DNA of 32,000 bases from Promethearchaeota archaeon (GTDB lineage Archaea; Asgardarchaeota; Hermodarchaeia; Hermodarchaeales; Hermodarchaeaceae), in NCBI GenBank assembly GCA_048938295.1, contig JBHLMI010000006.1, forward strand, positions 30,001-62,000, written 5' to 3'. Both the position numbers and the translations under genes were made by a program. Under the pieces are notes generated by a model, which was given only the letters and a program-made list of their open reading frames with translations, searched no databases and was not told the DNA's origin. Positions 1 to 13,512 of the stretch are shown piece by piece; the first letter of the stretch is position 1; each line of letters starts with the position of its first letter.

Positions 1-1746
1 GGCAAGGAGATTTGGGATCCGTTCAAAAATGTTGACTTCTACATATTGAGTGCCTTTTGAGAGTTTGAGAATTCCTCTAGCAATGACTTTTTCATAGAAA
101 TCATCGAAGAAATAACCTCGCTCAACAATACTATTGATGGGAGCTATTATTTTTATCTTAAATTCTGAGACCAACCGATTTCTACTATAATAGATTAGAT
201 AGACCGGAAGGCCTCCAATCAATAAGACCAATAGAAAGATCACTGTTTCGAAGCTGAGAATATTCTCAAGACTAATTTCCACAGACACACCCAGAAATTG
301 GCCAAGCCCGTTTGCGAAGAAACCCCAGATTGTGCAAAAGACAGCAAGGACAGCGCAGGCGAAAAGCATTATTTTGGGGGCTTCATGCAGTTGAAATTTT
401 CCCGCATATTCAGTTTTTTCTCGAAGGAAGGTGAGGATTGTAAAACGCAGAGTATAAGCAAAGGTCAATGCTATGGCTGCATAAACACAAAGAACAAGCA
501 AGACATCTCCGGTAGTCTTTAGACTCGTAATTATTAGACCCTTGCTAAAGAAACTAGCAAATGGAGGTACGCCGGTTCGGGCAAATAAAACTACCAGGCA
601 TAGCCCAAATGTGATTGGCAACGCTTTACGAAGCCCGCCCATCTGACGCATGTCTCGTGTTCCAAGGATATGGATTATTCCTCCGATAGCAAGAAATCCA
701 AGACTCTGGAAAAACGCATGGCTAATTAGATGGAACAACCCAGCAAACCATCCAAGTGATGAAGCAGAGGTAGCTGAACCAAGTGCAGCAACCATGAAGC
801 CAATTTGACTTGTAGTTGAATATGCAGGAACGCCTTTGATATCAGGAGTGGAGAGTGCCAAAGTGGCACCGATGAAAGCTGTTATTGCGCCAATCCATGC
901 AACAGATGGTAACCAGAGTGGGATTAACGGTAGTAGTGGACCAAAAAGAATGAATAACCTCGCAATTAGATAGACTCCAGCTTTCACCATGGTTGCACCA
1001 TGTAAGAGTGCACTAACAGAAGTCGGTGCCTCCATGGCTGTGTACAACCATGTATGCAAAGGGAGCTGTGCTGATTTTGTAATTGCTCCAGCCAGTATAA
1101 GGAAAGCGACTAGGGTGAGAGTGGGAAATGGTATTAGAGCAATATTGCTAATGAGATAAGAAAAAGAGAACGACCCTAGGTGTACATAAAGAAGGAGTAT
1201 GGCTCCAAAGAAGCAGACGTCGCCGACCCGTGTCATAATAAAGACTTTTTTGCCTGCGCGAACTGGTTCAATGCGCTTATTCCAGAATGAAACTAATGAA
1301 TAAGAACATAAGCCGACCATTTCCCAGAAAATGAACAGTTGGAAGAAATTGTCAGAAAGAACGAGGGCAATCATCGAACCAATAAAAAGTAGCATAAAGA
1401 AGTAGTATCGTGAAAGATTTTCTTCACCTGCCATATAGCCTAACGAGTAAATAATGACGATAAGACCGATAGAAGCAATCAAATTTGTAAAAAGTATACT
1501 AAGTGGATCTACTAATACTCCAATTTGGATACCAATTGCAGGAAGAACGTCTATTGTGAATTCAGTACTGGTCAGTATACCAAAGTAAATATCTGGAATT
1601 ATTGAGATTGCAAATACTGTAGTGATTAGACAAATGATAACAGCAAAATAATCTCGTGCTTTTCCACTTCGTCGCCCAAGAAGAGGAACAAATATGCTAG
1701 AAGCAATTGGAATAATCCATACAAGCCACGGAGCGAAAGGTAGCAT
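1..1746 (-). CDS. nuoL: NuoL/MrpA-type antiporter-like membrane subunit (partial, runs off left edge)
   Basis: Absent from the ORF track; translated by hand from ATG at 1746, open to base 1 (582 codons). Motifs FIFWEMVG, TRVGD, ITKSAQLPLHTWL, AMEAPTSVSALLHGATMVKAG, AYSTTSQIG, FHLISHAFFQ, DMRQMGGL, FFSK. Confidence 0.95.
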   Translation of the reverse strand, partial: MLPFAPWLVWIIPIASSIFVPLLGRRSGKARDYFAVIICLITTVFAISIIPDIYFGILTSTEFTIDVLPAIGIQIGVLVDPLSILFTNLIASIGLIVIIYSLGYMAGEENLSRYYFFMLLFIGSMIALVLSDNFFQLFIFWEMVGLCSYSLVSFWNKRIEPVRAGKKVFIMTRVGDVCFFGAILLLYVHLGSFSFSYLISNIALIPFPTLTLVAFLILAGAITKSAQLPLHTWLYTAMEAPTSVSALLHGATMVKAGVYLIARLFILFGPLLPLIPLWLPSVAWIGAITAFIGATLALSTPDIKGVPAYSTTSQIGFMVAALGSATSASSLGWFAGLFHLISHAFFQSLGFLAIGGIIHILGTRDMRQMGGLRKALPITFGLCLVVLFARTGVPPFASFFSKGLIITSLKTTGDVLLVLCVYAAIALTFAYTLRFTILTFLREKTEYAGKFQLHEAPKIMLFACAVLAVFCTIWGFFANGLGQFLGVSVEISLENILSFETVIFLLVLLIGGLPVYLIYYSRNRLVSEFKIKIIAPINSIVERGYFFDDFYEKVIARGILKLSKGTQYVEVNIFERIPNLLA

Positions 1747-1749
1747 TCA

Positions 1750-2097
1750 CTATTCCCTCTTTGCAATTATTTCACAGTTGTTTGTCTCATGATCATTATT
1801 TTCACTGTGCAAAAGTCTCGCAAGCTCTCGGATATCGCAGGTACCATATTTGCGCGAGATACTGACTAGCAAAACCAGGACTATAGCGGAGATACATGCA
1901 TCAGTCGAGAAAGCTAGAATGAAAATCGCTTCACCTAATGGTTTGAGAATTGATGAGGCAAATAGCACAAAATTCATGGTTGCCGCATTTGTAATTAGTT
2001 CAATAGAGATAACGGTTTTTAGAAACTGGTATTTGCTTAACAAACCATAGATACCGATTCCCATCAGCACTACCGAGAGAATGAGATAATCCATCAA
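1750..2097 (-). CDS. nuoK: NuoK/4L-type membrane subunit
   Basis: Three hydrophobic helices, SIELITNAA (conserved Glu), position between nuoJ and nuoL, TTGA overlap with the nuoJ stop. Confidence 0.9.
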   Translation of the reverse strand: MMDYLILSVVLMGIGIYGLLSKYQFLKTVISIELITNAATMNFVLFASSILKPLGEAIFILAFSTDACISAIVLVLLVSISRKYGTCDIRELARLLHSENNDHETNNCEIIAKRE

Positions 2098-2564
2098 GAT
2101 GCCCCCTTTTCCTTTTTTATTTCATGAAAAAAGAATACGACACCCACAGCAGTAACAAGGATTACTAATCCTTGTATCAAGATATCCACGATTCTTAGAT
2201 CCCAGAGCGCCTGACTGAAAGTGAACACGATTGGAATACTAGGTGCAATTATTGGTACCGAAAGAAAAATTACTGGCAAGGATAGTAAAATGGCAATTGC
2301 GATAGCTGCTATTAAACTCTGGATGGTCTGCTTTTTAACTGACTCCTCGCTCAACATTTCGCTAGACAGAAAAAGTAATGCAGCAGTTCCCACGCCAACA
2401 GCAAGTTGAAAAATTGCCACAAAGAATGCACCATTCAATGCAAAGAGAAGTGCAAGCAGCAACAGCATACAAACTAGTGATCCAATTGCATAGACGGCTT
2501 CTTCAAAATGAACAGCCAGAAATGCGAAAATAATCAGTAGTATTACAATTAATTCTATAATCAT
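2094..2564 (-). CDS. nuoJ: NuoJ-type membrane subunit
   Basis: Five hydrophobic segments, AFFVAIFQLAVGVG helix, position between nuoI and nuoK. Confidence 0.82.
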   Translation of the reverse strand: MIIELIVILLIIFAFLAVHFEEAVYAIGSLVCMLLLLALLFALNGAFFVAIFQLAVGVGTAALLFLSSEMLSEESVKKQTIQSLIAAIAIAILLSLPVIFLSVPIIAPSIPIVFTFSQALWDLRIVDILIQGLVILVTAVGVVFFFHEIKKEKGAS

Positions 2565-2948
2565 CTAGGTTTCTTCCCCTCCTGAGGTATTTGGATGAGG
2601 ATCTACAATAAGGTGTGATTTTTCATGGTTTGCAAGTTCAAAAATAACAGAAGTCTTGATAGCATTTTTAGGACAACTCTCAGCACATTGATAACAAAAA
2701 ACGCAACGATATAGCATGAATTTAGGCCGTTGCTTACCCTCTACATCCACCATTTCGATGGCTTCAGCAGGACAAACTCTTGAACATAATCCACAGCTGA
2801 TACAAAGATCTATATCAAATACTTGTCTCCCCCGAAGATTCTCAGGAACTTCCGGTTTAATCGCGGGATATTTTGAAGTAGCAGGTTTTCTAAAAAGCTG
2901 GAGAAAAACTTCCTTTAAGATAGGGGAGATTCTTCGTTTTTTGCTCAT
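2565..2948 (-). CDS. nuoI: NuoI-type 2x[4Fe-4S] subunit
   Basis: CISCGLCSRVCP and CVFCYQCAESCP motifs; N-terminal KPATSKYP. Confidence 0.93.
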   Translation of the reverse strand: MSKKRRISPILKEVFLQLFRKPATSKYPAIKPEVPENLRGRQVFDIDLCISCGLCSRVCPAEAIEMVDVEGKQRPKFMLYRCVFCYQCAESCPKNAIKTSVIFELANHEKSHLIVDPHPNTSGGEET

Positions 2949-2961
2949 TCAATCACCAACC

Positions 2962-3954
2962 TCAACCTGCAAAAAAATTTGTTCCAAATATCAATCCAAT
3001 AGTTATAATGAGTGACAAAATAGATAGTGGCACTAGAATCTTCCAACTCAATGTGAGCATTTGGTCAATTCGCAATCGCGCAAATATGCAGCTTAAGTAT
3101 TCAGAGATAATAACAACAATCAAGACTTTTATCACAAACCACAAGGTATACCAGAATGGTGCTAAGCCAAAAAAAACAGGTCCAAAGGGGCCTCCCAAGA
3201 ATAGCTCAACCACAATCACTGCGACTACTAAGCGTTGTACTTCCCTTGCAAGTTTCAAGAAAGCTAATTTTCGTCCGCCGTATTCTGTCTCATAACCTCC
3301 CACAATCTCCGTATCTGCATGAGGAATATCAAAGGGGTCTTTCTCTAACTCCGCTTGCATAGTAAAGAGGAATAATACAAATACCCAAGGTATCAAAATG
3401 GCAAACGGGATGGATTGGCTGGCAACGATTACTGAGAAACTCAGGGAACCTGCAATGAAAGCAGGTGCTAAAGCGAGGACGAAAAGAGGAAGATCATATC
3501 CGAGAAATTGCATCAGGACCCTTTTCGCGCTTATAGCACTATAGGGGTTGGTTGAAGCCCAGCCTGAAAGAAATAGAAGTAAATTCGCAATCGAGACTAA
3601 CGAGAGTATCAGAATCAAATCGCCTTGAAAACTCGAATTGAGAACCACATTCCCCCCATCAATTGGCAACAAGAATAGAGTAAAAACATAAAGGGAAAAA
3701 GCGAAAATTGGTACAAATTTAAAGAGGACACTTCTGGTTTCAATTGGGACTACATCTTCTTTTATGAGCAACTTGATGAAGTCAGCAAAGGGTTGTAAAA
3801 TCCCTCCTGGACCAGCTTGATTGGGTCCAATCCGATTCTGCATCCGAGCCTCAAGTTTCCTATCAACCCATGCGAAGAACATAGCGAGAAGAAAAATGAA
3901 AGTGAATCCTGGAAAGACTAAAACCCGAATTATAAATAAGAGATCCAGAGTCAT
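2962..3954 (-). CDS. nuoH: NuoH/HycD-type membrane subunit
   Basis: DRKLEARMQNRIGP, GILQPFADFIKLLIKE, PFDIPHADTEIVGGYETEYGG, ARLRIDQ. Confidence 0.95.
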   Translation of the reverse strand: MTLDLLFIIRVLVFPGFTFIFLLAMFFAWVDRKLEARMQNRIGPNQAGPGGILQPFADFIKLLIKEDVVPIETRSVLFKFVPIFAFSLYVFTLFLLPIDGGNVVLNSSFQGDLILILSLVSIANLLLFLSGWASTNPYSAISAKRVLMQFLGYDLPLFVLALAPAFIAGSLSFSVIVASQSIPFAILIPWVFVLFLFTMQAELEKDPFDIPHADTEIVGGYETEYGGRKLAFLKLAREVQRLVVAVIVVELFLGGPFGPVFFGLAPFWYTLWFVIKVLIVVIISEYLSCIFARLRIDQMLTLSWKILVPLSILSLIITIGLIFGTNFFAG

Positions 3955-3972
3955 TTCATCACCCCTCTTTTT

Positions 3973-5562
3973 TTATCTATCCGTGCAGGAGAAGCAAGGA
4001 TCTAGACTAACGAAGCTTGCGGGAATATCCGCCACATTGACGCCCTGAGCTATGCTGACAAATGAAAGGATATTCGCATAGGTTGGTGTTCGAACTTTAA
4101 CCCGTTCAGGTGACCGTGTTCCATTACCTTTCACATAGTAAAACAGTTCACCACGTGGAGCTTCTACTCGACTAATTGAATCATTTGCGGGAACTACCCT
4201 GGGAACTTTGATTCGATAGGGACCACTTGGTAGATGGTCTACTATGTAGTCTATTATCTGAATACTTTCTGAAATTTCATCTAGTCTTACCATTAGACGG
4301 GACCAGCTATCTCCTGAAGGATAAGTTATCATGTTGAAAGGAATTTCACCATAAGCAAAATATGGCTGATTTTTCCTAACATCCATTTTTAGACCTGAAC
4401 CCCGTGCGACTGGACCTACAACGCAGAGTTCTAATGCATCTTTTTTACTGAGCAGCCCAATATTTTTTGTTCGCCCTTTAAAGGTGATATCAGTCTCGAA
4501 TAGGTGTTTGTAGAAGTCTACTCGTTTTCCTAGTTTGTCTAATTCTGATTTAATCAGAGGAATTTTTTGGGTGTTTAGATCAGCCCGTACGCCTCCAATT
4601 GCCATAATAGAAGCATGAACTCGATTGCCTGTAATAATTTCCATTAAATCCATCATGGGTTCACGGTCACGCCACATGTACTGAAAGACTGATTGGTATC
4701 CGATTTCTAGGCACGCATGGCCCAATACTAGCAGGTGACTTTGAATACGATTCAACTCAAGGACAAGTGTACGTAGGTATTTGGCTTTTGGTGGTATTTC
4801 GACGCCCAGTATTGCTTCGACGGCTTGGCAAAAGCATGATGAGTGGCATGAATTGCAGATCCCGCATATTCTTTCAACTAAATATACATTCTGAGGATAT
4901 CTACGGCTTTCAGTAGCTTTTTCTACTGCTCGATGACAATACCCAATTCGTGGTTCAACTTTTCGAATTCTTTCACCATCTACATCAAGTACAAATCTTT
5001 CAGGTTCTAGTAAAGCGGGATGCTGTGGGCCCATAGTTAGCGTTATTATTTGACTTTTAGTCGATGGATTATCGGTTATGGAGGGATTTGTTATCGGGCT
5101 AATTTGATTCATTACATCTTCAAGATTTGCATCTTTCCTGAGTGGAAACAGATTCTCAGGCCAATTATCTGGAAGAATTAGCCTCTTGGGATTAGGATGG
5201 TTAAGGAACACTACACCGAAAAAGTCGCTGACTTCTCTCTCATGAAAGTTGGCTCCAGGTAGAATATCTGTAATGCTGTTGATTTCTGCTTTAGATTTAG
5301 GCACGCTCGTAATGATTGTGATAATTGTCCCAAGAAAGCGAAAGTGATATCGAATTTCTATGTCTTTGGCCATATCTATTCCTGTGATCGCTGATATTGT
5401 CGTGGTATCATCCTTTTCTAGGAGTGCTTTTAGCGCTGTTCTATGGGTTCCAGGCTCCACTTGAATCGTTGTTTCTTCTTTTCGGGATTGTCTAATCGAA
5501 AAACTTGAATCCTTAAATGCGGCTCCCAGCAATGATGAAAGTATCTCTTCCATGGTAATCAC
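3973..5562 (-). CDS. nuoCD: Group 4 [NiFe]-hydrogenase large subunit, fused NuoC-NuoD type
   Basis: NuoC-like N-terminus (HEREVSDFFGVVFLNHP, FPLRKD), then GPQHPALLEP, GYCHRAVEK, L1 motif ERICGICNSCH, EAPRGEL, and L2 motif DPCFSCTDR at the extreme C-terminus. Confidence 0.93.
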   Translation of the reverse strand: MITMEEILSSLLGAAFKDSSFSIRQSRKEETTIQVEPGTHRTALKALLEKDDTTTISAITGIDMAKDIEIRYHFRFLGTIITIITSVPKSKAEINSITDILPGANFHEREVSDFFGVVFLNHPNPKRLILPDNWPENLFPLRKDANLEDVMNQISPITNPSITDNPSTKSQIITLTMGPQHPALLEPERFVLDVDGERIRKVEPRIGYCHRAVEKATESRRYPQNVYLVERICGICNSCHSSCFCQAVEAILGVEIPPKAKYLRTLVLELNRIQSHLLVLGHACLEIGYQSVFQYMWRDREPMMDLMEIITGNRVHASIMAIGGVRADLNTQKIPLIKSELDKLGKRVDFYKHLFETDITFKGRTKNIGLLSKKDALELCVVGPVARGSGLKMDVRKNQPYFAYGEIPFNMITYPSGDSWSRLMVRLDEISESIQIIDYIVDHLPSGPYRIKVPRVVPANDSISRVEAPRGELFYYVKGNGTRSPERVKVRTPTYANILSFVSIAQGVNVADIPASFVSLDPCFSCTDR

Positions 5563-5572
5563 GATTTTAGTC

Positions 5573-5998
5573 TTAAATCATGTTTAGGAGTTTTGCAACT
5601 CCATCAATGAGAGCTTCTGGTTTCGGGGGGCAGCCTGGAATGTACATATCGACAGGTAAGACCTTATCGACTCCGCCTAAGAGGCTGTAATTACCTCTAA
5701 AGATGCCTCCTGAGCAACCACATGCTCCAATTGCAACGACGAAACGTGGCTGAGGCATCTGCTCGTAAATTCGTCGTAATCTCTCGGCACATTGTATAGT
5801 GACAACGCCTGTGACTAACAATACATCGGCATGTCGAGGTGAAGGTTCAAGTCGAATTCCGAAGCGTTCAACATCATATCGGGGTGTTAAAAGGGAGACA
5901 AGTTCGATATCACAGCCATTACATGATCCCGAATTAAAATGAAGTACCCATGGAGAGTGCTTTTTTACCCACTGGGTTAATTTAGCACAACACGTTAT
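5573..5998 (-). CDS. nuoB: Group 4 hydrogenase small subunit (NuoB-like); true start uncertain
   Basis: The frame stays open upstream of the track start (5821) to 5998, giving KLTQWVKKHSPWVLHFNSGSCNGCDIE...SPRHADVLLVTG...GACGCSGG...PGCPPKP. The CNGC ligand pair is hydrogenase-type. No in-frame ATG/GTG/TTG lies upstream of these motifs. Confidence 0.9.
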   Translation of the reverse strand: MTCCAKLTQWVKKHSPWVLHFNSGSCNGCDIELVSLLTPRYDVERFGIRLEPSPRHADVLLVTGVVTIQCAERLRRIYEQMPQPRFVVAIGACGCSGGIFRGNYSLLGGVDKVLPVDMYIPGCPPKPEALIDGVAKLLNMI

Positions 5999-6333
5999 TT
6001 ATCTCCCTCCTTTAATAACAAAATACTGGATATTAGGATAGCCACCAAGTAGCAAAATAGACCCAACAAATTTATTGTTGACAGTCCCAAGGAAGCAAAG
6101 GCGATTATCAATATTGCTGAATCCAGAATGAGAAAATAGGCAAAATACTTGTAAAGAGAGACACTAATTCTTGGTCTCTTAAAATACGCTTTTTCGCCAC
6201 AAGCATATGAAGATTGGGCAGTCTCACTGATAGATTGCTTGGGTGAAAGGCGACGACCAACTAAGTAAATAAGAGATGAGACTAAGATCACCAACAGAAA
6301 AGCCACTACGAGTTCGACGAACAACAGAATCAT
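5995..6333 (-). CDS. nuoA: NuoA/ND3-type membrane subunit
   Basis: TM helix, loop with SSYACGE (cf. YECG), YFLILDS helix, third TM; first gene of the operon. Confidence 0.85.
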   Translation of the reverse strand: MILLFVELVVAFLLVILVSSLIYLVGRRLSPKQSISETAQSSYACGEKAYFKRPRISVSLYKYFAYFLILDSAILIIAFASLGLSTINLLGLFCYLVAILISSILLLKEGDK

Positions 6334-6416
6334 CTTCCTTACAGATCACTTCTCAGCTAATAGACAATTACTGCTTCCTGTCAGTCTCAAACGGATAGTT
6401 AGAGAATGAAAGGGGA

Positions 6417-6437
6417 ATTTAAATCTATCATATATGA
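6417..6437 (-). promoter_or_regulatory. Candidate TATA box (TTTAAA) for the hydrogenase operon with adjacent palindrome TCATATATGA
   Basis: ATTTAAAT at 6417-6424, about 85 nt upstream of nuoA; perfect 10-bp palindrome at 6428-6437. Confidence 0.3.
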
Positions 6438-6458
6438 GAAGCAAATTACATCCTGACA

Positions 6459-7556
6459 TCAGACAATTTTGGCTTTTTGCTTTCGTCGTATGAGTACGAC
6501 AGAAGAAATAATGACAATTATGGCGATAGTGCCCCCGATTGTTATTATGAGATAGAGAGTTAACGGAGGAGGCGGTGGCGTAAAAAAGTCTGTAAGTGCG
6601 ATTTTTCTGTAGTGAAGAGTACCATCATCAGCAACTGCATGATAGAGAGTAAGTGATTCGGTGTATCCGGGAGCTCCTGGTTGTACGGCAGCTAATTCTG
6701 TATCAAGGTTCATCGTTGCAGTTATTGTATAGTCACGATCATACCACAGATATATGTCTCGGCTAACACAGTCGAATACGTTACTATACTTAGTTGCATA
6801 AAGTCCGTTTTGGTGAACAGCATCAAGTACATCTCTGCACGCCTCCACTGTGAGAGCGGATTCTGACGAAATGGCTGTGAGCATGAGCATAGCAGTGCTG
6901 TATCGCCAGCAATCAAAGACATCGCGAGTTGAATCGGCGACATTGATATTGGTTGATACTAGGCAGGTGTTGGTCTGGATGCGGGTAAAGGCGATTTCAT
7001 TGTCGTCACCAGGACTAACAACGACTGCATCACCCGTCGCATCGGCAAAGTGTAATTGATAGGGCATTGATGTTCCGATACGATGTGTTTGATACCAAGT
7101 CACAACTTCTTCGACGGTGGCACATTCCCAGAGAATTTGGGCCATCATCGCACAGTAAGGCGTATCTCTTTCAGGATGGTCATGTATTGAATAGTCGCTG
7201 AGGGCATTACCATCTATGCATAATCCCTGATCATTCATTCCACCTTGAGGGTATCCGTCAGCCTGATCGCCATTATCATCGAAGCCAAAAAAGATAGCAC
7301 CATAAGTAGTATGGCTTCCAGACGGTGTCCAGATCGCCTGAGCGGGGATGAACCAAGCATAGATCCCCCAGAGCCGATAGTCTTCATTATTCCCAAACAA
7401 TACACGATCGCTAATTGTGGCAGTAAAGATTGTACATGAATCGCCGATGTGAGTGGCTGGGTTGGAGTTTGTCGAATTGATGCCTTGCGTTGAATCAATA
7501 CTAATTCTGGCTGAAAGGAACCAAAGGATAATGATGATGATTACAACCTTTCTCAT
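6459..7556 (-). CDS. Secreted, C-terminally anchored Ntn hydrolase (C45/choloylglycine hydrolase-like)
   Basis: Signal-like MRKVVIIIIILW (ATG at 7556 preferred), SCTIF nucleophile Cys, LFGNNED, GGMNDQGL, YQLHFADATG, STN; PPPPP linker, TM helix and RRKQK tail. Confidence 0.8.
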   Translation of the reverse strand: MRKVVIIIIILWFLSARISIDSTQGINSTNSNPATHIGDSCTIFTATISDRVLFGNNEDYRLWGIYAWFIPAQAIWTPSGSHTTYGAIFFGFDDNGDQADGYPQGGMNDQGLCIDGNALSDYSIHDHPERDTPYCAMMAQILWECATVEEVVTWYQTHRIGTSMPYQLHFADATGDAVVVSPGDDNEIAFTRIQTNTCLVSTNINVADSTRDVFDCWRYSTAMLMLTAISSESALTVEACRDVLDAVHQNGLYATKYSNVFDCVSRDIYLWYDRDYTITATMNLDTELAAVQPGAPGYTESLTLYHAVADDGTLHYRKIALTDFFTPPPPPLTLYLIITIGGTIAIIVIISSVVLIRRKQKAKIV

Positions 7557-7717
7557 GAGAATACGTGGATCTGCGAATAATGGCAAGAGGAGTCACTTCG
7601 GCATAAACCCACATATTTCGAAAATATAATCCTATGGATATCGGTGGAGCCAGCAAGACCTACCTCATTTATATGAGGTTCAAAAAATAGGGTAGGCAGT
7701 ATACGGAGGTATTTACT

Positions 7718-8407
7718 ATGGGTCTGAAAGATCAAACAGTGGCAGTCATTACCATCATCCTTGGTGTCATCCTACTATTCGTCGGCGCTTGGGTTTGGAA
7801 CAACCTACCACAACCTACAGCATTCAACCTTGGTCTTGGCTTAATCGCTATCGGTATAATGGTTCTCATTGGCGGAATTGTGATTGCCATCACATCTGGT
7901 GGACGCAAAGAACCGAAGGTAGCTGGACCAGCTGCAGCACCGAAGAATGTAGAAGTTGCTGAAGGCCCCGAGGAATTCGTTCCAGAAGTTCTGCTTCCAC
8001 AGCCAGGTAAGAAACAGCTCCCCGTTAGCACCATTGAAGGAATTGGTAAAACGTATCAAGATGAACTTGAAAAAGGGAATATCAAGTGGGTTGAAGACCT
8101 GGCTCTCGCAAACCCAGAGACCATCTCGAGGTTAACTAGCGTCAACAACAGGACTGCGCAGAAGTGGATTGCGATGGCGCGTTTGACCTGGCTGGATAAT
8201 GTGTCCAATGAAGATGCCGAATGTATCGTCTTGGGTGCTAACATCACCAGCATTGAAGAGCTGGCTGTAGCAGATGCTGAAGACCTGTACAATAAGGTTT
8301 CAACTGCTGAGAAATTTGGTCGAGTTCAAGTTCCTAAAGGCTACAAGATCACCAAAGATAAAGTCAGGCTGTGGATTGAAAGCGCGAAAAAAGAAATGCC
8401 TGAATAG
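7718..8407 (+). CDS. DUF4332-like helix-hairpin-helix protein with two N-terminal TM helices
   Basis: IEGIGKTYQDELEKGNI HhH motif, WIAMARLTWLDNVSNEDAECIVLGANITSIEELA, KVRLWIESAK. Confidence 0.75.
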   Translation: MGLKDQTVAVITIILGVILLFVGAWVWNNLPQPTAFNLGLGLIAIGIMVLIGGIVIAITSGGRKEPKVAGPAAAPKNVEVAEGPEEFVPEVLLPQPGKKQLPVSTIEGIGKTYQDELEKGNIKWVEDLALANPETISRLTSVNNRTAQKWIAMARLTWLDNVSNEDAECIVLGANITSIEELAVADAEDLYNKVSTAEKFGRVQVPKGYKITKDKVRLWIESAKKEMPE

Positions 8408-8424
8408 GTTTTCTTTACTAGAAA

Positions 8425-8445
8425 GACTCCTCAACTAGAGGAATC
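8425..8445. terminator. Possible hairpin between convergent genes
   Basis: GACTCCTC-AACTA-GAGGAATC imperfect stem with T-rich flanks. Confidence 0.3.
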
Positions 8446-8471
8446 CCTTGCATTCTTTTCATTACGCTGTA

Positions 8472-9281
8472 TTATGAGGTTAAGGGTTTAGTAGCTTTAA
8501 CACTCCAACATAGTGGTAAGAGATCTCCTTCTATATGCCATTCTCCATCTTGAATCTTTTCTGCAAATTGAACTGGTTTCCACGGCAAAGCGGGAAATTC
8601 TTTGACTTCAGCGATTATGAGACCTACTTGGATTAAGGCATTAAGAACATCACTCACAGTATGAGCCCATTCGTACCCCCTTGTATTGGTCAACTTTATG
8701 TCTGTATCAACATAGGTCCCTTCCTCATCATAACTGAATGGTTCGTCTGAGTGCCAATATGAGTACTTGACCTTAAGTTCGCTTGGATGATCAAAATCAA
8801 AGACCCAGAAAAATGGGTGTCCATCCACAATGAAGAAGGTTCCACCTGGTTTCAAGTAATTTGCAATTATCTGACCCCATGATTTGATGTCTGCCAACCA
8901 GCAGAGAACACCAAAACTAGTAAAGACGATGTCATATTCGCTCTGATGGACTTTAGGGAGATCGTAGATGTTGCTACAGATGAACTGTGTATCTGAGCCA
9001 ACCTGTTGCGCAAGTTCGCGAGCAAACTTGATTGCTTTATCGCTGAAATCCACACCGGTCGCCTTAGCACCCAGACGAGACCAACTGATTGTGTCAAGCC
9101 CAAAATGGCATTGCAGATGCAACAAACTCTTACCAGACACATCACCCAGTGCATCCAACTCAACCTGGTGGAGACTCGTTGTTCCGGCTAGAAAACCTTC
9201 GAGACCATATTCTTCAGACTTCGCATGAATTGCTACGAGTTCATTCCATCGGCGCTTATTCGCTTCATAGTATTCATCCAT
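8472..9281 (-). CDS. Class I SAM-dependent methyltransferase
   Basis: LLHLQCHFGLDTISW, GVDFS, YDIVFTSFGVLCW, LKPGG, EWAHTVSD. Confidence 0.92.
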   Translation of the reverse strand: MDEYYEANKRRWNELVAIHAKSEEYGLEGFLAGTTSLHQVELDALGDVSGKSLLHLQCHFGLDTISWSRLGAKATGVDFSDKAIKFARELAQQVGSDTQFICSNIYDLPKVHQSEYDIVFTSFGVLCWLADIKSWGQIIANYLKPGGTFFIVDGHPFFWVFDFDHPSELKVKYSYWHSDEPFSYDEEGTYVDTDIKLTNTRGYEWAHTVSDVLNALIQVGLIIAEVKEFPALPWKPVQFAEKIQDGEWHIEGDLLPLCWSVKATKPLTS

Positions 9282-9386
9282 GAAATGACCACCTCTTGAA
9301 CCAAGTGATATGACTTGTGTGACAAGAGAATAGATTAATTATTTTGTGTTTCCAAAGTGCTTGACCTGGAATTCGAAGGTAATTTT

Positions 9387-9944
9387 CTAGCGATCCTTGG
9401 GAATGGGAACTTGAATCAGACCACTTTCGGGATTACGAGCTAGTTCGATGATATTATTACCGATGAGTTGGCAGCTTAGCCGTTTGTGGGGGCGAATACG
9501 AATGAATATCGGTTCTGCTTCGTCTCTTTGCTCTTCAGCCATTCTCAGATTAAATCGGAGGATACGAGTTTGATTAAAGGCATGAAGGCCAACCTGGTTG
9601 TCGAATGGAAATATCTCCGCGTTCCCTTGGAATTGGATTACACCTGCAGGGATAAAGCGAAAGATATGATGAGGGTATGGTACGGCAAAAGACACATGAG
9701 GACTCGATCGGATGTTCTTATATTTCTTTGAGGTTTTTCCGGTAATCACCCAGATGTATAACGGTAACTCAGGCAGGGATACTGCATAACTTACACCGGT
9801 GGTTTGTGACCAGCCTTTAGGGCTCACGGTTCCGAGTAGCCCAAAGCTTTTCTTACGAAGTTGCTTTTCGAGGTAGTCAAAGGTTATTTTTTGAGCCATT
9901 TTTTCCAAGTCCTCCAAAGGATTGAGTTCTTTCTGAGAATCCAC
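9387..9944 (-). CDS. Pyridoxamine 5'-phosphate oxidase-like (split-barrel flavin-binding) protein
   Basis: FGLLGTVSPKGWSQTTGV, SKKYKNIRSSPHVSF, IQFQGNAEI. Confidence 0.8.
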   Translation of the reverse strand: MDSQKELNPLEDLEKMAQKITFDYLEKQLRKKSFGLLGTVSPKGWSQTTGVSYAVSLPELPLYIWVITGKTSKKYKNIRSSPHVSFAVPYPHHIFRFIPAGVIQFQGNAEIFPFDNQVGLHAFNQTRILRFNLRMAEEQRDEAEPIFIRIRPHKRLSCQLIGNNIIELARNPESGLIQVPIPKDR

Positions 9945-10008
9945 GCGAATATACTTTAAGTGAGATATGGAGTTACGCAGACTTCACCTTCAGCTTGCTG
10001 CCTCCCAT

Positions 10009-10140
10009 CTACCTTGATTTGGTGTCAAGAAAGGCTTGCCTGAGTGCCACAATGGTTGGGGGATTAAGACAATTTGCTCGCACTGGACGATTCAATATCA
10101 GATAGAGAATATGGTGTTCAGCTTGTTGTTCAAGGCTCAT
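10009..10140 (-). pseudogene. Enoyl-CoA hydratase/crotonase N-terminal fragment (43 aa)
   Basis: Hand translation MSLEQQAEHHILYLILNRPVRANCLNPPTIVALRQAFLDTKSR*, resembling the crotonase ITLNRPxxxNAL motif; stops early. Confidence 0.55.
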
Positions 10141-10160
10141 CTAAATTCATCACTGAGCGT

Positions 10161-10682
10161 TTAGGTCCATTTAATTCGTTCAAGACTCATGGCTCGAAGC
10201 TGCATGGTCAATTCACCTAGATGATATGTATTGTGCCGGATCAGGTACTGATACTTTTCAAGTATCGAGACAAACCAGTGGAACCCATCTTTTGCCAGAA
10301 ATTCTTTGTCAGTCATACCTTTCAATTTATTCTCCAAGTATCTAGCTATCTCGTTTAGGTAGACGAGAGTATCTCCTTTAACCACTTTTTCAGCAGCTTC
10401 CTTAGCAGGAAGCGTTTCCCACCAATTGATTATTCCAAGCCTAGCACCCCATTGCATTCCATCAGGAGCATCCCGAGAATAGAATTCAGCTGTTTCGACC
10501 ATATGATAAACACGAAGTGAATAGAACCACTCCTCATCAGTCTCAATACCTACAGTCCACTTCTTATCTGGGATTTGTTCGATCGCATTTCGGGTCATCG
10601 CCCACAAGGCCCGAAATTGGCGAGCTAGACTAAAAGCAATTTTGCTTTTGAACTCCGTTTCTTCAAGCTTTGGCATATGCAT
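10161..10682 (-). CDS. DinB/YfiT-family protein
   Basis: VYHMVETAEFY and LIRHNTYHLGELTMQLR His pattern; helical bundle size. Confidence 0.8.
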   Translation of the reverse strand: MHMPKLEETEFKSKIAFSLARQFRALWAMTRNAIEQIPDKKWTVGIETDEEWFYSLRVYHMVETAEFYSRDAPDGMQWGARLGIINWWETLPAKEAAEKVVKGDTLVYLNEIARYLENKLKGMTDKEFLAKDGFHWFVSILEKYQYLIRHNTYHLGELTMQLRAMSLERIKWT

Positions 10683-10753
10683 CCCTGGCAGAAGCTATGG
10701 AATTTGAAGTCTTATAAATCTTGAAAACTTAAGGGCTTCAGGCGATATCATCG

Positions 10754-11281
10754 ATGTCTACTAGACAGCACCTAATTGCCATTCTTGCCCTCCCCTTCAC
10801 AGTCACCATCATCATTCCTATTCTCCTTCTGCTCCTATCAGAGTGGTCAGGTCATCCTTGGTTATTCCTCTATCCCCTGAACCCTCTAACACTCATACTA
10901 GGTACCATGAGCAGCGCCATAGGACTTGTAACCCTCTACAAAACCAACCAAGCCTTCGCCCGTACTGGTAAAGGAACCCTCGCGCCATGGGCACCCACCC
11001 AACGCTTAGTCGCCGTTGGACTCTACTGCTATGTCCGCAATCCGATGATCATATCCGTGCTTCTCATTCTGCTGGGTGAAGCCATTCTGTTTGGAGCAAC
11101 CCTCCTTTTCCTCTGGTTCTTTATCTTCTGGATTATGAATCATGTCTGGTTCATCTGGTGGGAAGAGCCAGACTTGGAAAGACGATTCGGAGACAAGTAT
11201 CGTGAGTACAAGGCGAATGTTCCGCGATGGTTTCCCCGTCCCACCCCATGGAGACCTCAGTCCACTGACTCAAACATCTAA
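10754..11281 (+). CDS. Isoprenylcysteine carboxyl/phospholipid methyltransferase-family membrane protein
   Basis: GKGTLAPW, GLYCYVRNPMI, EEPDLERRFGDKYREYKANVPRWFP. Confidence 0.88.
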   Translation: MSTRQHLIAILALPFTVTIIIPILLLLLSEWSGHPWLFLYPLNPLTLILGTMSSAIGLVTLYKTNQAFARTGKGTLAPWAPTQRLVAVGLYCYVRNPMIISVLLILLGEAILFGATLLFLWFFIFWIMNHVWFIWWEEPDLERRFGDKYREYKANVPRWFPRPTPWRPQSTDSNI

Positions 11282-11342
11282 TCTGTGGACAGAAATACAG
11301 CAGGTCACCTAGATTAAATGCGAAAACGAGTAACAGGTGCGA

Positions 11343-11480
11343 TTATGTGCCTACGATGGCTTGGGGTTTGACTTCAAACCCAGCCCGGGCACAGCGACAA
11401 CAATACCCAGAGCCCTTATTGATTTGGAGTTCACGGCACCGGAGGCATTCGGTGTGGCGACAGTATCGGCAGGTGCGCAA
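11343..11480 (-). CDS. Cys-rich zinc-finger-like microprotein (45 aa from TTG; 48 aa from GTG at 11489)
   Basis: MRTCRYCRHTECLRCRELQINKGSGYCCRCARAGFEVKPQAIVGT*; SD GGGGTGA 5 nt before TTG; TATA upstream; fills an otherwise empty 350-nt gap. Confidence 0.7.
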   Translation of the reverse strand: MRTCRYCRHTECLRCRELQINKGSGYCCRCARAGFEVKPQAIVGT

Positions 11481-11494
11481 ATGGTTCACCCCAC

Positions 11495-11537
11495 ATCTAT
11501 ATAATCTATAGATTCCTTAGAATAATGACTTATAAAG
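11495..11537 (-). promoter_or_regulatory. TATA box and 7-5-7 palindrome upstream of the microprotein
   Basis: CTTTATAA (minus) at 11530-11537; ATCTATA-TAATC-TATAGAT at 11495-11513. Confidence 0.5.
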
Positions 11538-11550
11538 GTACGGATTTCGT

Positions 11551-11568
11551 CGCCTCTACAAAAAGGCG
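11551..11568 (-). terminator. Possible hairpin downstream of the MFS gene
   Basis: CGCCT-N8-AGGCG stem about 65 nt after the MFS stop. Confidence 0.25.
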
Positions 11569-11631
11569 GGTAATACCATCGCCATCCCACATTTCAGGAA
11601 AGACAAGGCATTTCACAGTAATCTAACTGCT

Positions 11632-13218
11632 TCAAGAGGGCTCGTTGACTTCTTTCGGTTTCTGAAACGCGTCGGTTAACACCGCCCGCTTATCAAGTTC
11701 TTTATACGCTTCGGCAGGAGTCTCAGCGGGAAGCGGTAATTCAGGAATGTCTACTGAAGGAACTTCAGGGATTTCGGGAACCTCATCCTTGATTTCTTCA
11801 AGGAATTCTTCGATGGATTCATCTTTAGGAATGGGGTGTTTAAACCCTCTCTGGATAAGAAATGCCCCAATGAAAGCAACAGCAGCAGCTATCGTAAAGA
11901 CTGCGGGAAACCCGAAAATGGGTAAGAGCTGACTAATGGCAAAGATTAGTGGGATTGAGAGTAGAAATGCGATAGTCGGGCGAAGGCTGTACATACAATT
12001 GCGGATACGGTTGGGAAAAACATCTAACATTACACGCCCACTCAACACTTCACTCATCCGACCGATGAAGTCAGAGGAAACGAAAAGTATCCAAATCAGA
12101 ATCACCGGAAGAATTGATACGAATGGTAAGGTCAGGAAGGGAACAGCGGTGAAGGGAATGAAGACTGTAAGGAATTCGGTCGCACCAAGGGGTGGTGGGA
12201 AAGCAGCTGTTATTAGGACGAGTCCTATACAAAAAGCAACTCCCATAAACTGTATAAACCGAAGCCGTGGAATCCACTTCACCGGATCAAACCGCTGCGA
12301 AACAACACCCGATCTCTCCTGTGCGACGATCATCGGTGCGAACATTGAGGTGCGGAATGCAGATACAGCTATATCACTCAGTAAATATGAGAAGTAGAGG
12401 GGGAACAGCAGGATTTCCCACCATACGATGCCGATGGCCCACATGAGCATTTCGCCTGCCATGGTGAAGGCAACGAATTTTGAGGACCCCATGAACCGGA
12501 TGCCGTCCTTGAGGAGGCGACCGTATTCACGGAAGCCGGTTCGGTGCTCTGTGTATTTTCGGGCACCGGGGAGATCACGAATAAAAACGAAGGCCATAAT
12601 GGCGAGAATGATGAAGAGAATGCCCTGGACTTGGAATACCCATCCATGACTGAAGATGAAGGCAAGGATGCTGCCTGGGATGAGAACAAGGGTAGAAATG
12701 AATTGGAACATTGTTCCTGCACGGGCCCAGAAGACACCGTATTGTTTGCGGTCTTTGTCTTGTGGCATGGCGACACGATAGTTATTATCAAACCAAGCAG
12801 GCATAGCTCCACTTTCCTGGGAGGCGCCCAGCCCCATGAGGACGTAGATTAGAATAAAGACATAAAACGGGACAAAGACCACTGAGACAGCGTAGGCTGT
12901 AAGAAAGAAGGCAATACTGTAACAAATTAGGGCGGAGGCAATGATCCAGCGTTGACCAATCCAGTCGCCAATCCCTCCGGTAGGATAATCTAAAACGACT
13001 TGGACAACGATGCGGATGATGACGAGGAGACCAACCATGGCCATGCCGGCAAGGTAGTCACCACCTCCCAATACCGTCGCAATCGAGATCATCCAGAAGG
13101 TGGTTGAGAGTTGGAAAGCGATGGACCATGTGGAGCCGAGTGACATCACCACTAGGGCGATGCGGTTGGCTTGGGGAGAATCCTCTTTGAATCCAAACAT
13201 TCGGCTCAGGAGACTCAT
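11632..13218 (-). CDS. MFS transporter with acidic/Pro-rich C-terminal tail
   Basis: About 12 hydrophobic helices; LDYPTGGIGDWIGQR (MFS motif A-like), GLGASQESGA, DVFPNRIRNCMYSL. Confidence 0.88.
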   Translation of the reverse strand: MSLLSRMFGFKEDSPQANRIALVVMSLGSTWSIAFQLSTTFWMISIATVLGGGDYLAGMAMVGLLVIIRIVVQVVLDYPTGGIGDWIGQRWIIASALICYSIAFFLTAYAVSVVFVPFYVFILIYVLMGLGASQESGAMPAWFDNNYRVAMPQDKDRKQYGVFWARAGTMFQFISTLVLIPGSILAFIFSHGWVFQVQGILFIILAIMAFVFIRDLPGARKYTEHRTGFREYGRLLKDGIRFMGSSKFVAFTMAGEMLMWAIGIVWWEILLFPLYFSYLLSDIAVSAFRTSMFAPMIVAQERSGVVSQRFDPVKWIPRLRFIQFMGVAFCIGLVLITAAFPPPLGATEFLTVFIPFTAVPFLTLPFVSILPVILIWILFVSSDFIGRMSEVLSGRVMLDVFPNRIRNCMYSLRPTIAFLLSIPLIFAISQLLPIFGFPAVFTIAAAVAFIGAFLIQRGFKHPIPKDESIEEFLEEIKDEVPEIPEVPSVDIPELPLPAETPAEAYKELDKRAVLTDAFQKPKEVNEPS

Positions 13219-13330
13219 GTTTGTCCACGTTCGGCTGTGTTGGTGCGCTGATGTTCCCAGGTGCCTGAGCCTATTAAAGGGGGACTCACTTCACGAGGTC
13301 ACCGATTGTGACTAATGCCGTGTTGGTTGC

Positions 13331-13420
13331 TTCTTCCCCCGTTGGTGTTCGATGGTTCAGGTCACTTGAAGTGGGTGCATCGAACGACTTTATTTTTCTC
13401 AGTGAGTGAGAACACCCTCT
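13331..13420 (-). ncRNA. Structured 5' leader of the MFS gene resembling a degenerate TPP riboswitch
   Basis: GGGUG, CUGAGA, ACCC, ACCUGAAC and CGGGGGAA occur in TPP-aptamer order; P1 and P5 do not pair canonically. TATA-like TTTATAT at about 13430-13436. Confidence 0.35.
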
Positions 13421-13512
13421 TGAACTTTGATATAAAGCTTTCCGTTGAGAAGAAATATTTTAAGTTTTGAAGAAAACTGGAACTCCAATCAATATAATGA
13501 GACACAGACTTT

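Follow-up and report, generated by a model that had tools for sequence, protein, structure and literature searches.

An Hfo-type membrane-bound [NiFe] hydrogenase operon with an adjacent FrhB/FpoF-like gene in an Asgard archaeon, apparently acquired from a Bathyarchaeia-like donor

Hfo, as described in Bathyarchaeia by Loh, Herve and Brune, 2021 (PMC7886697), is a hydrogenase of 11 subunits whose genes are arranged like those of Fpo and whose catalytic subunit is placed in [NiFe] subgroup 4g; it was presented as the first hydrogenase to have the same 11 subunits as Fpo and Nuo. Its type clusters were reported without FpoFO or NuoEFG, a feature which does not define the family; the literature searched also describes the Bathyarchaeia complexes as lacking FpoF, and Loh et al. 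regarded FrhB as an orphan of unclear function in F420 reduction. Asgard archaea, too, are known to have complex-I-like group 4 hydrogenases in which the HL helix is complete (Valentin-Alvarado et al., 2024, PMC11291895; Appler et al., 2024; bioRxiv 10.1101/2024.07.04.601786). The subject of the present work is an operon in a stretch of 32,000 nucleotides (nt), hereafter the window, which corresponds to positions 30001-62000 of contig C41 (JBHLMI010000006.1) in the genome of a Promethearchaeota archaeon (GCA_048938295.1), a metagenome-assembled genome (MAG) of 2.52 Mb in 66 contigs that is 91.6% complete with 4.3% estimated contamination. The operon encodes the full Hfo subunit set followed by an FrhB/FpoF-like flavoprotein, and we think it quite probable that it specifies a membrane-bound, ion-coupled [NiFe] hydrogenase of the Hfo type, imported as a unit from a Bathyarchaeia-like donor, which may also be linked to coenzyme F420 through the FrhB-like gene.

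All genes of the operon lie on the minus strand, in the order A-B-CD-H-I-J-K-L within the window and then M, N and a twelfth gene beyond its left edge. Downstream of a non-coding leader (6334..6453), hfoA (5995..6333) encodes a NuoA/FpoA-like membrane subunit of 112 amino acids (aa) that matches Oxidored_q4 (PF00507) at 24.9 bits, above the cut-off, and hfoB (5573..5998) a NuoB-like hydrogenase small subunit of about 141 aa (Oxidored_q6, PF01058, 118.8 bits). The product of hfoCD (3973..5562; 529 aa) is a fusion of a NuoC-like domain to the [NiFe] large subunit, with matches to PF00329 (Complex1_30kDa), PF00374 (NiFeSe_Hases) and PF00346 (Complex1_49kDa). There follow hfoH (2962..3954), for a NuoH-like membrane subunit of 330 aa (PF00146, 282 bits), and hfoI (2565..2948), for a NuoI-like ferredoxin subunit of 127 aa that matches Fer4 families and has two CxxCxxCxxxCP [4Fe-4S] motifs in its translation. 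The NuoJ-like product of hfoJ (2094..2564; 156 aa) scores 26.3 bits against PF00499, under the cut-off of 33.2, and the position of the gene in the operon is kept in relatives; hfoK (1750..2097) encodes a NuoK-like protein of 115 aa (PF00420, 67 bits). The NuoL-like antiporter subunit HfoL, of 651 aa in total, occupies window positions 1..1746 and runs off the window, its last 69 codons lying to the left, where hfoM (C41:28305-29789; 494 aa) and hfoN (C41:26799-28295; 498 aa) are found; HfoL, HfoM and HfoN all match Proton_antipo_M. The twelfth gene (C41:25606-26727; L009:11606-12727) encodes a protein of 373 aa with two Fer4 domains followed by FrhB_FdhB_N and FrhB_FdhB_C. In the Pfam scan, Nuo-type families and the FrhB-like gene make up the whole gene content between the two junctions of the cassette that holds the operon (discussed below); a Mrp-type sodium module (MbhA-C, F) is absent from all of these genes, and NuoEFG from the hfo cluster.

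The two catalytic subunits are those of a hydrogenase. HfoCD carries the L1 motif as RICGICNSCH and the L2 motif as DPCFSCTDR, the latter at the extreme C-terminus; as there is no C-terminal extension, no maturation endopeptidase should be required. The four NiFe cysteines (C233, C236, C523 and C526) are invariant across 15 aligned relatives, in all of which C and D are fused as one gene. Compared with Escherichia coli NuoCD, HfoCD has GPQHPALLEP in place of GPNHPSAHG and RICGIC where NuoCD has RIEY, so that the quinone-site tyrosine is replaced, and the quinone-site histidine is also missing. The cluster ligands of HfoB fall in SCNGC, GACGC (within GACGCSGG) and PGCPP, with a CxxC arrangement instead of tandem CC. 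The marks of complex I and Fpo, namely loss of the NiFe cysteines, a quinone-site histidine and tyrosine and the tandem cysteines of NuoB, are therefore not those of HfoCD and HfoB, even though the operon has the subunits of Fpo and Nuo (A, B, C, D, H, I, J, K, L, M, N) and their order. Genes for maturation are present in the genome, all scoring above their cut-offs (hypA 95.7 bits, hypC 102.1, hypD 481.3, hypE 402.9 and hypF 769.3). A preliminary description of this DNA, made from its letters alone, had proposed an intact [NiFe] hydrogenase on a complex I chassis, from the gene order including NuoA, J and K, the two Ni-binding motifs without the quinone-site residues, and CNGC in the NuoB-like subunit; the open reading frames (ORFs), Pfam matches and comparison with E. 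coli NuoCD agree with it on each of these, and of the hyp genes for which it suggested looking, hypA, C, D, E and F were found.

Among proteins of solved structure, the large subunit is best matched by HycE of formate hydrogenlyase (7Z0S; 282 bits) and by MbhL of the Pyrococcus furiosus MBH (6CFW; 263 bits). These complexes differ from the present one in that they have one or two antiporter-like subunits, whereas here there are three in addition to NuoA/J/K-type genes, with neither MbhA-C/F-type Mrp subunits nor a formate dehydrogenase partner.

A closer correspondence emerged from a homolog search of 5.8 billion proteins, from which 80 related genomic loci were retrieved. Hundreds of CD-fused homologs at 59-66% identity were found, the named ones all belonging to Bathyarchaeia, and the best matches of the operon are also from Bathyarchaeia, at 63% identity. 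The order A-B-CD-H-I-J-K-L-M-N is kept in nearly all of the 80 loci, including those of the termite-gut Candidatus (Ca.) Bathycorpusculum. A quick maximum-likelihood tree of 47 large-subunit sequences was built with E. coli HycE, HyfG and NuoCD as the named references; it tests membership of the Hfo clade only, as MBS, Ech, Coo, Eha/Ehb and a named FpoD are not among its sequences. HfoCD nests within a Bathyarchaeia Hfo clade that holds the Ca. Bathycorpusculum loci (SH-like approximate likelihood ratio test, SH-aLRT, 99), three of which (L078, L083 and L084) are 50-53% identical to HfoCD. A separate branch with SH-aLRT 98 unites E. coli NuoCD with the Cys-less FpoD-like protein of this genome, and HycE, HyfG and the other two group 4 large subunits that the genome encodes are placed elsewhere in the tree.

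On these sequence comparisons the assignment of the locus to the Hfo family is secure, and its placement in subgroup 4g would follow from orthology to sequences classified by Loh et al. Like the Hfo of Bathyarchaeia subgroup 6 (PMC7886697), it combines 11 homologous subunits in identical order with intact L1 and L2 motifs and has neither a Mrp module nor NuoEFG; it differs in its Asgard host and imported cassette, in a non-canonical hfoB start, and in having an FrhB/FpoF-family gene directly after hfoN, which is not adjacent in the termite loci. The Asgard group 4 hydrogenases of Valentin-Alvarado et al. and Appler et al. resemble it in host, in combining a NiFe large subunit with Nuo-like membrane subunits and in their full-length HL helix, but groups 4j-4q, as these papers describe them, are native lineages often syntenic with Hdr and ATP synthase genes, whereas HfoCD nests in a clade of Bathyarchaeia sequences. 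The locus is therefore of a kind already known, a described but biochemically uncharacterised family, and the preliminary description, which had presented an intermediate between MBH and complex I, is partly supported: it was right in kind and overstated the novelty, since the same set of subunits, NiFe cysteines included, had been published as Hfo and complex-I-like group 4 enzymes had been described from Asgard archaea too. The large subunit does stay apart from Nuo and the FpoD-like protein, as that description expected. The reading past the left edge that it proposed yielded hfoM and hfoN and no Mrp module, and its statement that the operon has no NuoEFG/FpoF input module is wrong for the locus, given the FrhB/FpoF-family gene 71 nt past hfoN. 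A match to a well-characterised complex with the same subunits, which it had raised as an objection to itself, was found by half: the set has been described, though not characterised biochemically.

A rearranged second type of cluster was seen in five Bathyarchaeia loci (L065, L069, L072, L073 and L087), in which CD-I and the pair H and A are on opposite strands and K-N-L-M follows. Its CD sequences nest inside the Hfo tree, its membrane subunits are only 29-41% identical, and one MAG (L063 and L073) has both types.

The membrane subunits retain many of the residues associated with ion translocation. In both HfoL and HfoM the glutamate of transmembrane helix (TM) 5, the lysine of TM7 and the lysine or glutamate of TM12 are all conserved, as the antiporter Glu/Lys residues are in Fpo and Nuo, and the C-terminal part of HfoL consists of an amphipathic segment of about 100 residues and a final TM helix, like helix HL and TM16 of NuoL. 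The aspartate equivalent to E. coli NuoA D79 is kept in HfoA of all 68 relatives compared, and the glutamate equivalent to NuoK E36 in HfoK of all 69.

Considering next the twelfth gene, its product has cysteines for three [4Fe-4S] clusters, and its closest solved homologs are 8RIU_B (E 1.2e-44) and 8RJA_E (E 5e-38), respectively the zeta subunit of carbon monoxide dehydrogenase (CODH) and FwdI of Ca. Ethanoperedens thermophilum. In that archaeon, F420 reduction is plugged onto CODH and Fwd through an N-terminal ferredoxin domain (Lemaire et al., 2024, PMC11493965). The FrhB-like protein has the same layout as these plug-ins, in which a ferredoxin domain for two [4Fe-4S] clusters precedes an FrhB-type domain that holds a [4Fe-4S] cluster and flavin adenine dinucleotide, and the cluster cysteines are conserved; the partner is CODH or Fwd there and putatively a membrane hydrogenase here, and orthologs of the FrhB-like protein carry a CBS pair which the present copy has lost. 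Orthologs are abundant in Bathyarchaeia at 44-58% identity. An associated FpoF-family gene is a feature of Fpo too. The FrhB-like protein most likely links the hydrogenase to coenzyme F420, a link that is weakly supported.

The whole 12-product unit appears to have entered the genome together. The class to which the host belongs comprises 19 genomes, all of one family and divided between two genera, and no ortholog of HfoCD was found in the 18 other genomes, the best matches of at most 47% identity being counterparts of two other hydrogenases of this genome, on contigs C5 and C2; the FrhB-like protein has no ortholog in these 18 either. In a genome of the same genus, G002, the sequences matching C41:25348 and C41:36454 lie only 6 nt apart, similarity resuming at window position 6454, and the same two flanking genes are adjacent in five more genomes of that genus (G009, G010, G011, G012 and G014). 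The inserted segment is thus delimited to 11,105 bp, from the left junction at C41:25348/25349, just past the frhB-like gene, to the right junction at window 6453/6454, at the outer end of the hfoA leader. None of 976 sliding windows of 11 kb across the genome (mean 45.7%, standard deviation 1.6) has a GC content as low as the 40.1% of this segment, and the frhB-like gene has the same low GC at third codon positions as the rest of the cassette.

The simplest objection, that contig C41 is chimeric or mis-binned and that the operon comes from a co-occurring Bathyarchaeon, could appeal to the estimated contamination of the MAG and to the fact that the best matches of the operon all come from Bathyarchaeia. 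We nevertheless reject it as hardly credible: same-genus genomes show synteny with the two flanks at 70-88% nucleotide identity, both junctions are bridged by contigs from three sediment samples (X1, X2 and X3), and read depth stays level from flank to cassette (31.6-35.9 for X1, 14.1-16.8 for X2).

That the host is an Asgard archaeon follows from a profilin gene (C7:52862-53140), none being found in 14 control prokaryote genomes, from its actin matches, and from a flanking peptidase gene whose closest named relatives are labelled Promethearchaeota. The strongest actin matches are split between C9:53228-53734, which covers the N-terminal part (4-165), and C18:11406-11822, which covers the C-terminal part (257-408), and the actin gene may be split, interrupted or fragmented.

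Absence from the other genomes of the class, together with the precise insertion and the foreign composition, points to horizontal acquisition of the 11.1-kb unit from a Bathyarchaeia-like donor, and the best identity of 63% implies that the donor lineage is unsampled or that the transfer was not recent. Another family of the same phylum (G363) also carries an Hfo-type cluster. As to how the cassette moved, the surrounding 16 kb contain no tRNA gene, the two junction regions share no repeat, direct or inverted, of more than 9 nt, and the Pfam scan detected no integrase gene within it. Two DUF4332 genes lie nearby: one (C41:24624-25352) adjoins the left junction and has a further match to an integrase SAM-like N-terminal domain, and the other (window 7718-8404) is one gene away on the right.

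Since no Hfo has been purified or assayed, we can only infer activity, direction and ion stoichiometry, and the same holds for F420 coupling. By analogy with related complexes, the enzyme would most likely function as a reversible, ion-translocating ferredoxin:H+ oxidoreductase, in which HfoB, CD and I would form the peripheral arm and HfoA, H, J, K, L, M and N a membrane arm of full complex I type. Judging by homology to MBH and complex I, electrons would pass in either direction between a low-potential cytoplasmic carrier, the two clusters of HfoI, the cluster of HfoB and the NiFe site, so that H+/H2 turnover would take place at the position of the complex I quinone pocket and be coupled to ion translocation through the H/A/J/K channel and the three antiporter-like subunits. 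In one direction, which would be favoured when ferredoxin is highly reduced, oxidation of reduced ferredoxin would drive H2 evolution and ion export; in the other, following the model of Loh et al. (PMC7886697), H2 oxidation driven by the membrane potential would supply low-potential reductant to the Wood-Ljungdahl pathway. Three antiporter-like subunits would give a high ion-to-electron ratio, which would suit potential-driven reduction of low-potential carriers at low H2.

Several observations weigh against the proposal of an ion-coupled, F420-linked Hfo. According to Loh et al. (PMC7886697), no 4g enzyme has been biochemically characterised. In the membrane arm, HfoN has a glutamate for NuoN K217 and an aspartate for K247 (52 of 57 sequences), HfoK has no equivalent of the second glutamate, E72, and HfoJ has a glycine for Tyr59; all of these substitutions are family-wide, and in alignments made with MAFFT against E. 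coli only they indicate that the coupling path differs from that of complex I. The hfoB frame contains no ATG, GTG or TTG from the upstream stop codon until a TTG at 5821 (codon 60). The FrhB-like protein scores under the NCBIfam equivalog cut-offs for both FrhB (169.8 against 331.5) and FpoF (113.7 against 475), which, with its matching domain architecture, makes it a distinct subfamily, and at 373 aa it lacks the C-terminal CBS pair with which almost all of its close orthologs are listed, at about 510 aa; about 250 nt of non-coding DNA lie past the 3' end of its gene. Most Hfo loci, the termite type lineages included, have no adjacent FrhB-like gene, so this is a recurrent accessory and not an obligate subunit. 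Finally, CofH (FO synthase) was not found, which in a 91.6%-complete genome is not evidence of absence, CofH being the one F420-biosynthesis gene that the search covered.

The start of hfoB deserves closer attention. The mechanical ORF call is only 82 aa long; no stop codon interrupts the 141-aa frame, and the match to the NuoB family extends over its whole length. Its first codon would be an ATA that overlaps the TAA of hfoA and lies 6 nt past GGAGGG, in a junction that reads GGAGGG-N6-ATA-ACG (window 5950-6012). A frameshift or read-through fusion of hfoA with hfoB was considered and is ruled out, because the hfoB frame has its own TAA stop immediately ahead of the ATA. When 73 hfoB junctions were compared (the window and 72 related loci), 63 were found to have ATG, GTG or TTG within the 16 codons preceding a conserved SPW motif, most of these starts being ATG at the homologous position, and the other 10, the window among them, had none of the three there. 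The junction in the window's clade follows the pattern GGAGG-N5-8-(A/G/T)TAACG, and in the nearest relatives public gene calls shorten hfoB to 70-92 aa, the canonical start codon that gene callers need being missing. Sequence conservation of this kind looks like tolerated non-canonical or termination-coupled initiation, and not like a lesion or sequencing error.

It also bears on whether the cassette is a decaying, non-functional acquisition in which the start-less hfoB and the truncated FrhB-like gene mark early pseudogenisation. Besides these two features, the second of which has cost the protein its CBS pair, such a scenario could draw on the restriction of the cassette to a single genome of the 19 in the class. 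We judge it improbable, as the cassette's 11 reading frames are all open with full-length domain matches, the catalytic and pump residues are intact, and a start-less hfoB junction with a strong GGAGG is common to other divergent loci of the donor-like clade, where gene callers truncate the gene as well.

The relation of the FrhB-like protein to the hydrogenase can be approached through gene neighbourhood. The gene stands directly after hfoN, in the same 12-gene order, in eight further loci (L011, L013, L017, L085, L088 and L101-L103), among them the nearest Bathyarchaeia relatives, and in the present genome it is on the same strand as hfoN. In 10 other loci it is located upstream of hfoA at a distance of 0.15-1.7 kb, with two cases of opposite orientation, and in the two of the 10 that were checked a DUF1622 membrane-protein gene, possibly an extra component, intervenes between the FrhB-CBS gene and hfoA (L018:8297-8782 and L048:8325-8795). 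For 12 pairs of CD and FrhB-like homologs, the size of the longest contig is identical. No mention of a recurrent link between Hfo and an F420-reductase-type module was found in the literature searched.

Two routes from the FrhB-like protein to F420 can be envisaged: it could be a plug-in F420 reductase docked on HfoI, or a co-expressed ferredoxin:F420 oxidoreductase that would be reached through free ferredoxin. Docking was modelled by a complex prediction with two chains, HfoI and the FrhB-like protein only, and 3 controls. The pair scored 0.60 and the best control 0.00, with contact agreement between runs of at least 97% and a partner predicted local distance difference test (pLDDT) value of at least 83. 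Among solved complexes, 58 of 80 reached the mark that counts as a pass, as did 2 of 110 mismatches; a score of 0.60 or less was seen in only 7 of the 80 solved complexes and in both of the passing mismatches. The prediction accordingly lends weak support to docking, and the pass may reflect likeness to the solved FrhB-FrhG or zeta-CODH complexes.

The second route underlies an alternative in which Hfo would use ferredoxin only, and the FrhB-like protein would be a separate soluble enzyme, either a ferredoxin:F420 oxidoreductase or a partner of Hdr/Mvh, co-located as a consumer of the reduced ferredoxin made by Hfo. The soluble FpoF of Methanosarcina mazei is reportedly such a ferredoxin:F420 oxidoreductase, as Welte and Deppenmeier are said to have found in 2011. 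Consistent with this alternative are the absence of an adjacent gene from most Hfo loci, the 71-nt gap after hfoN, the lineages in which the gene is upstream, inverted or separated by the DUF1622 gene, the regulatory CBS pair of the orthologs, which is typical of soluble enzymes, the second FrhB-like paralog beside mtd described below, and the weakness of the docking prediction. It fits less well with the movement of the frhB-like gene along with the operon in the transfer, with closest solved homologs that anchor to their host enzyme through the same N-terminal ferredoxin domain, and with a prediction score of 0.60 where all controls stood at 0.00. We regard a ferredoxin-only Hfo as a serious possibility, if short of an even chance.

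The first route can be extended to a more specific proposal, which we put forward tentatively and consider somewhat unlikely as a whole. The FrhB-carrying Hfo clusters might encode a membrane-bound, ion-translocating H2:F420 oxidoreductase, a hydrogenase counterpart of Fpo, in which the F420 module would dock on HfoI and in most cases be gated by the CBS nucleotide sensor; it would supply F420H2 to Mer and Mtd in Wood-Ljungdahl archaea that have no Frh, and would be mobile between archaeal phyla as one cassette. In the host genome Mer and Mtd are present and no FrhA or FrhG was found, and of the four group-3-type large subunits that were scanned none scored over the equivalog cut-off for FrhA; three of these hydrogenases are Mvh-like, two of them beside HdrA-like genes, and one is group-3b-like. 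A second FrhB/FpoF-like paralog (C17:16758-17807; L094:6758-7804), 27% identical to the first, adjoins mtd, the gene for F420-dependent methylene-tetrahydromethanopterin dehydrogenase, and lies about 0.5 kb from hypD.

Other complexes of the same superfamily occur in this genome. A separate Nuo/Fpo-like cluster at C22:~500-13500 (L099) has five antiporter-like genes and a D subunit without the NiFe cysteines in which the loop histidine is kept, so that hydrogenase-type and respiratory-type complexes are encoded in one cell. The two further group 4 [NiFe] large subunits, at C5:39851-41071 and C2:111447-112652, have C-terminal extensions and probably belong to native membrane enzymes, since orthologs are found in many genomes of the class.

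For annotation, the practical consequence of this work is that an essential small subunit is systematically truncated in the Hfo clade of the window. More broadly, no [NiFe] hydrogenases match complex I more closely, gene for gene, than those of the Hfo type, and the locus provides a clean example of a whole machine that appears to have moved in a single cassette, its donor being Bathyarchaeia-like and its recipient an Asgard archaeon. Transfer can therefore remodel the H2 metabolism of the group nearest to eukaryotes, and readings of that metabolism as ancestral need checking accordingly. The recurrent link to an F420-reductase-type module offers a testable answer to the source of F420H2 in Wood-Ljungdahl archaea without Frh: if the enzyme is indeed an H2:F420 oxidoreductase, it would answer the question of F420H2 supply left open by Loh et al. 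(PMC7886697), and would show that such a unit can cross archaeal phyla as a single cassette.

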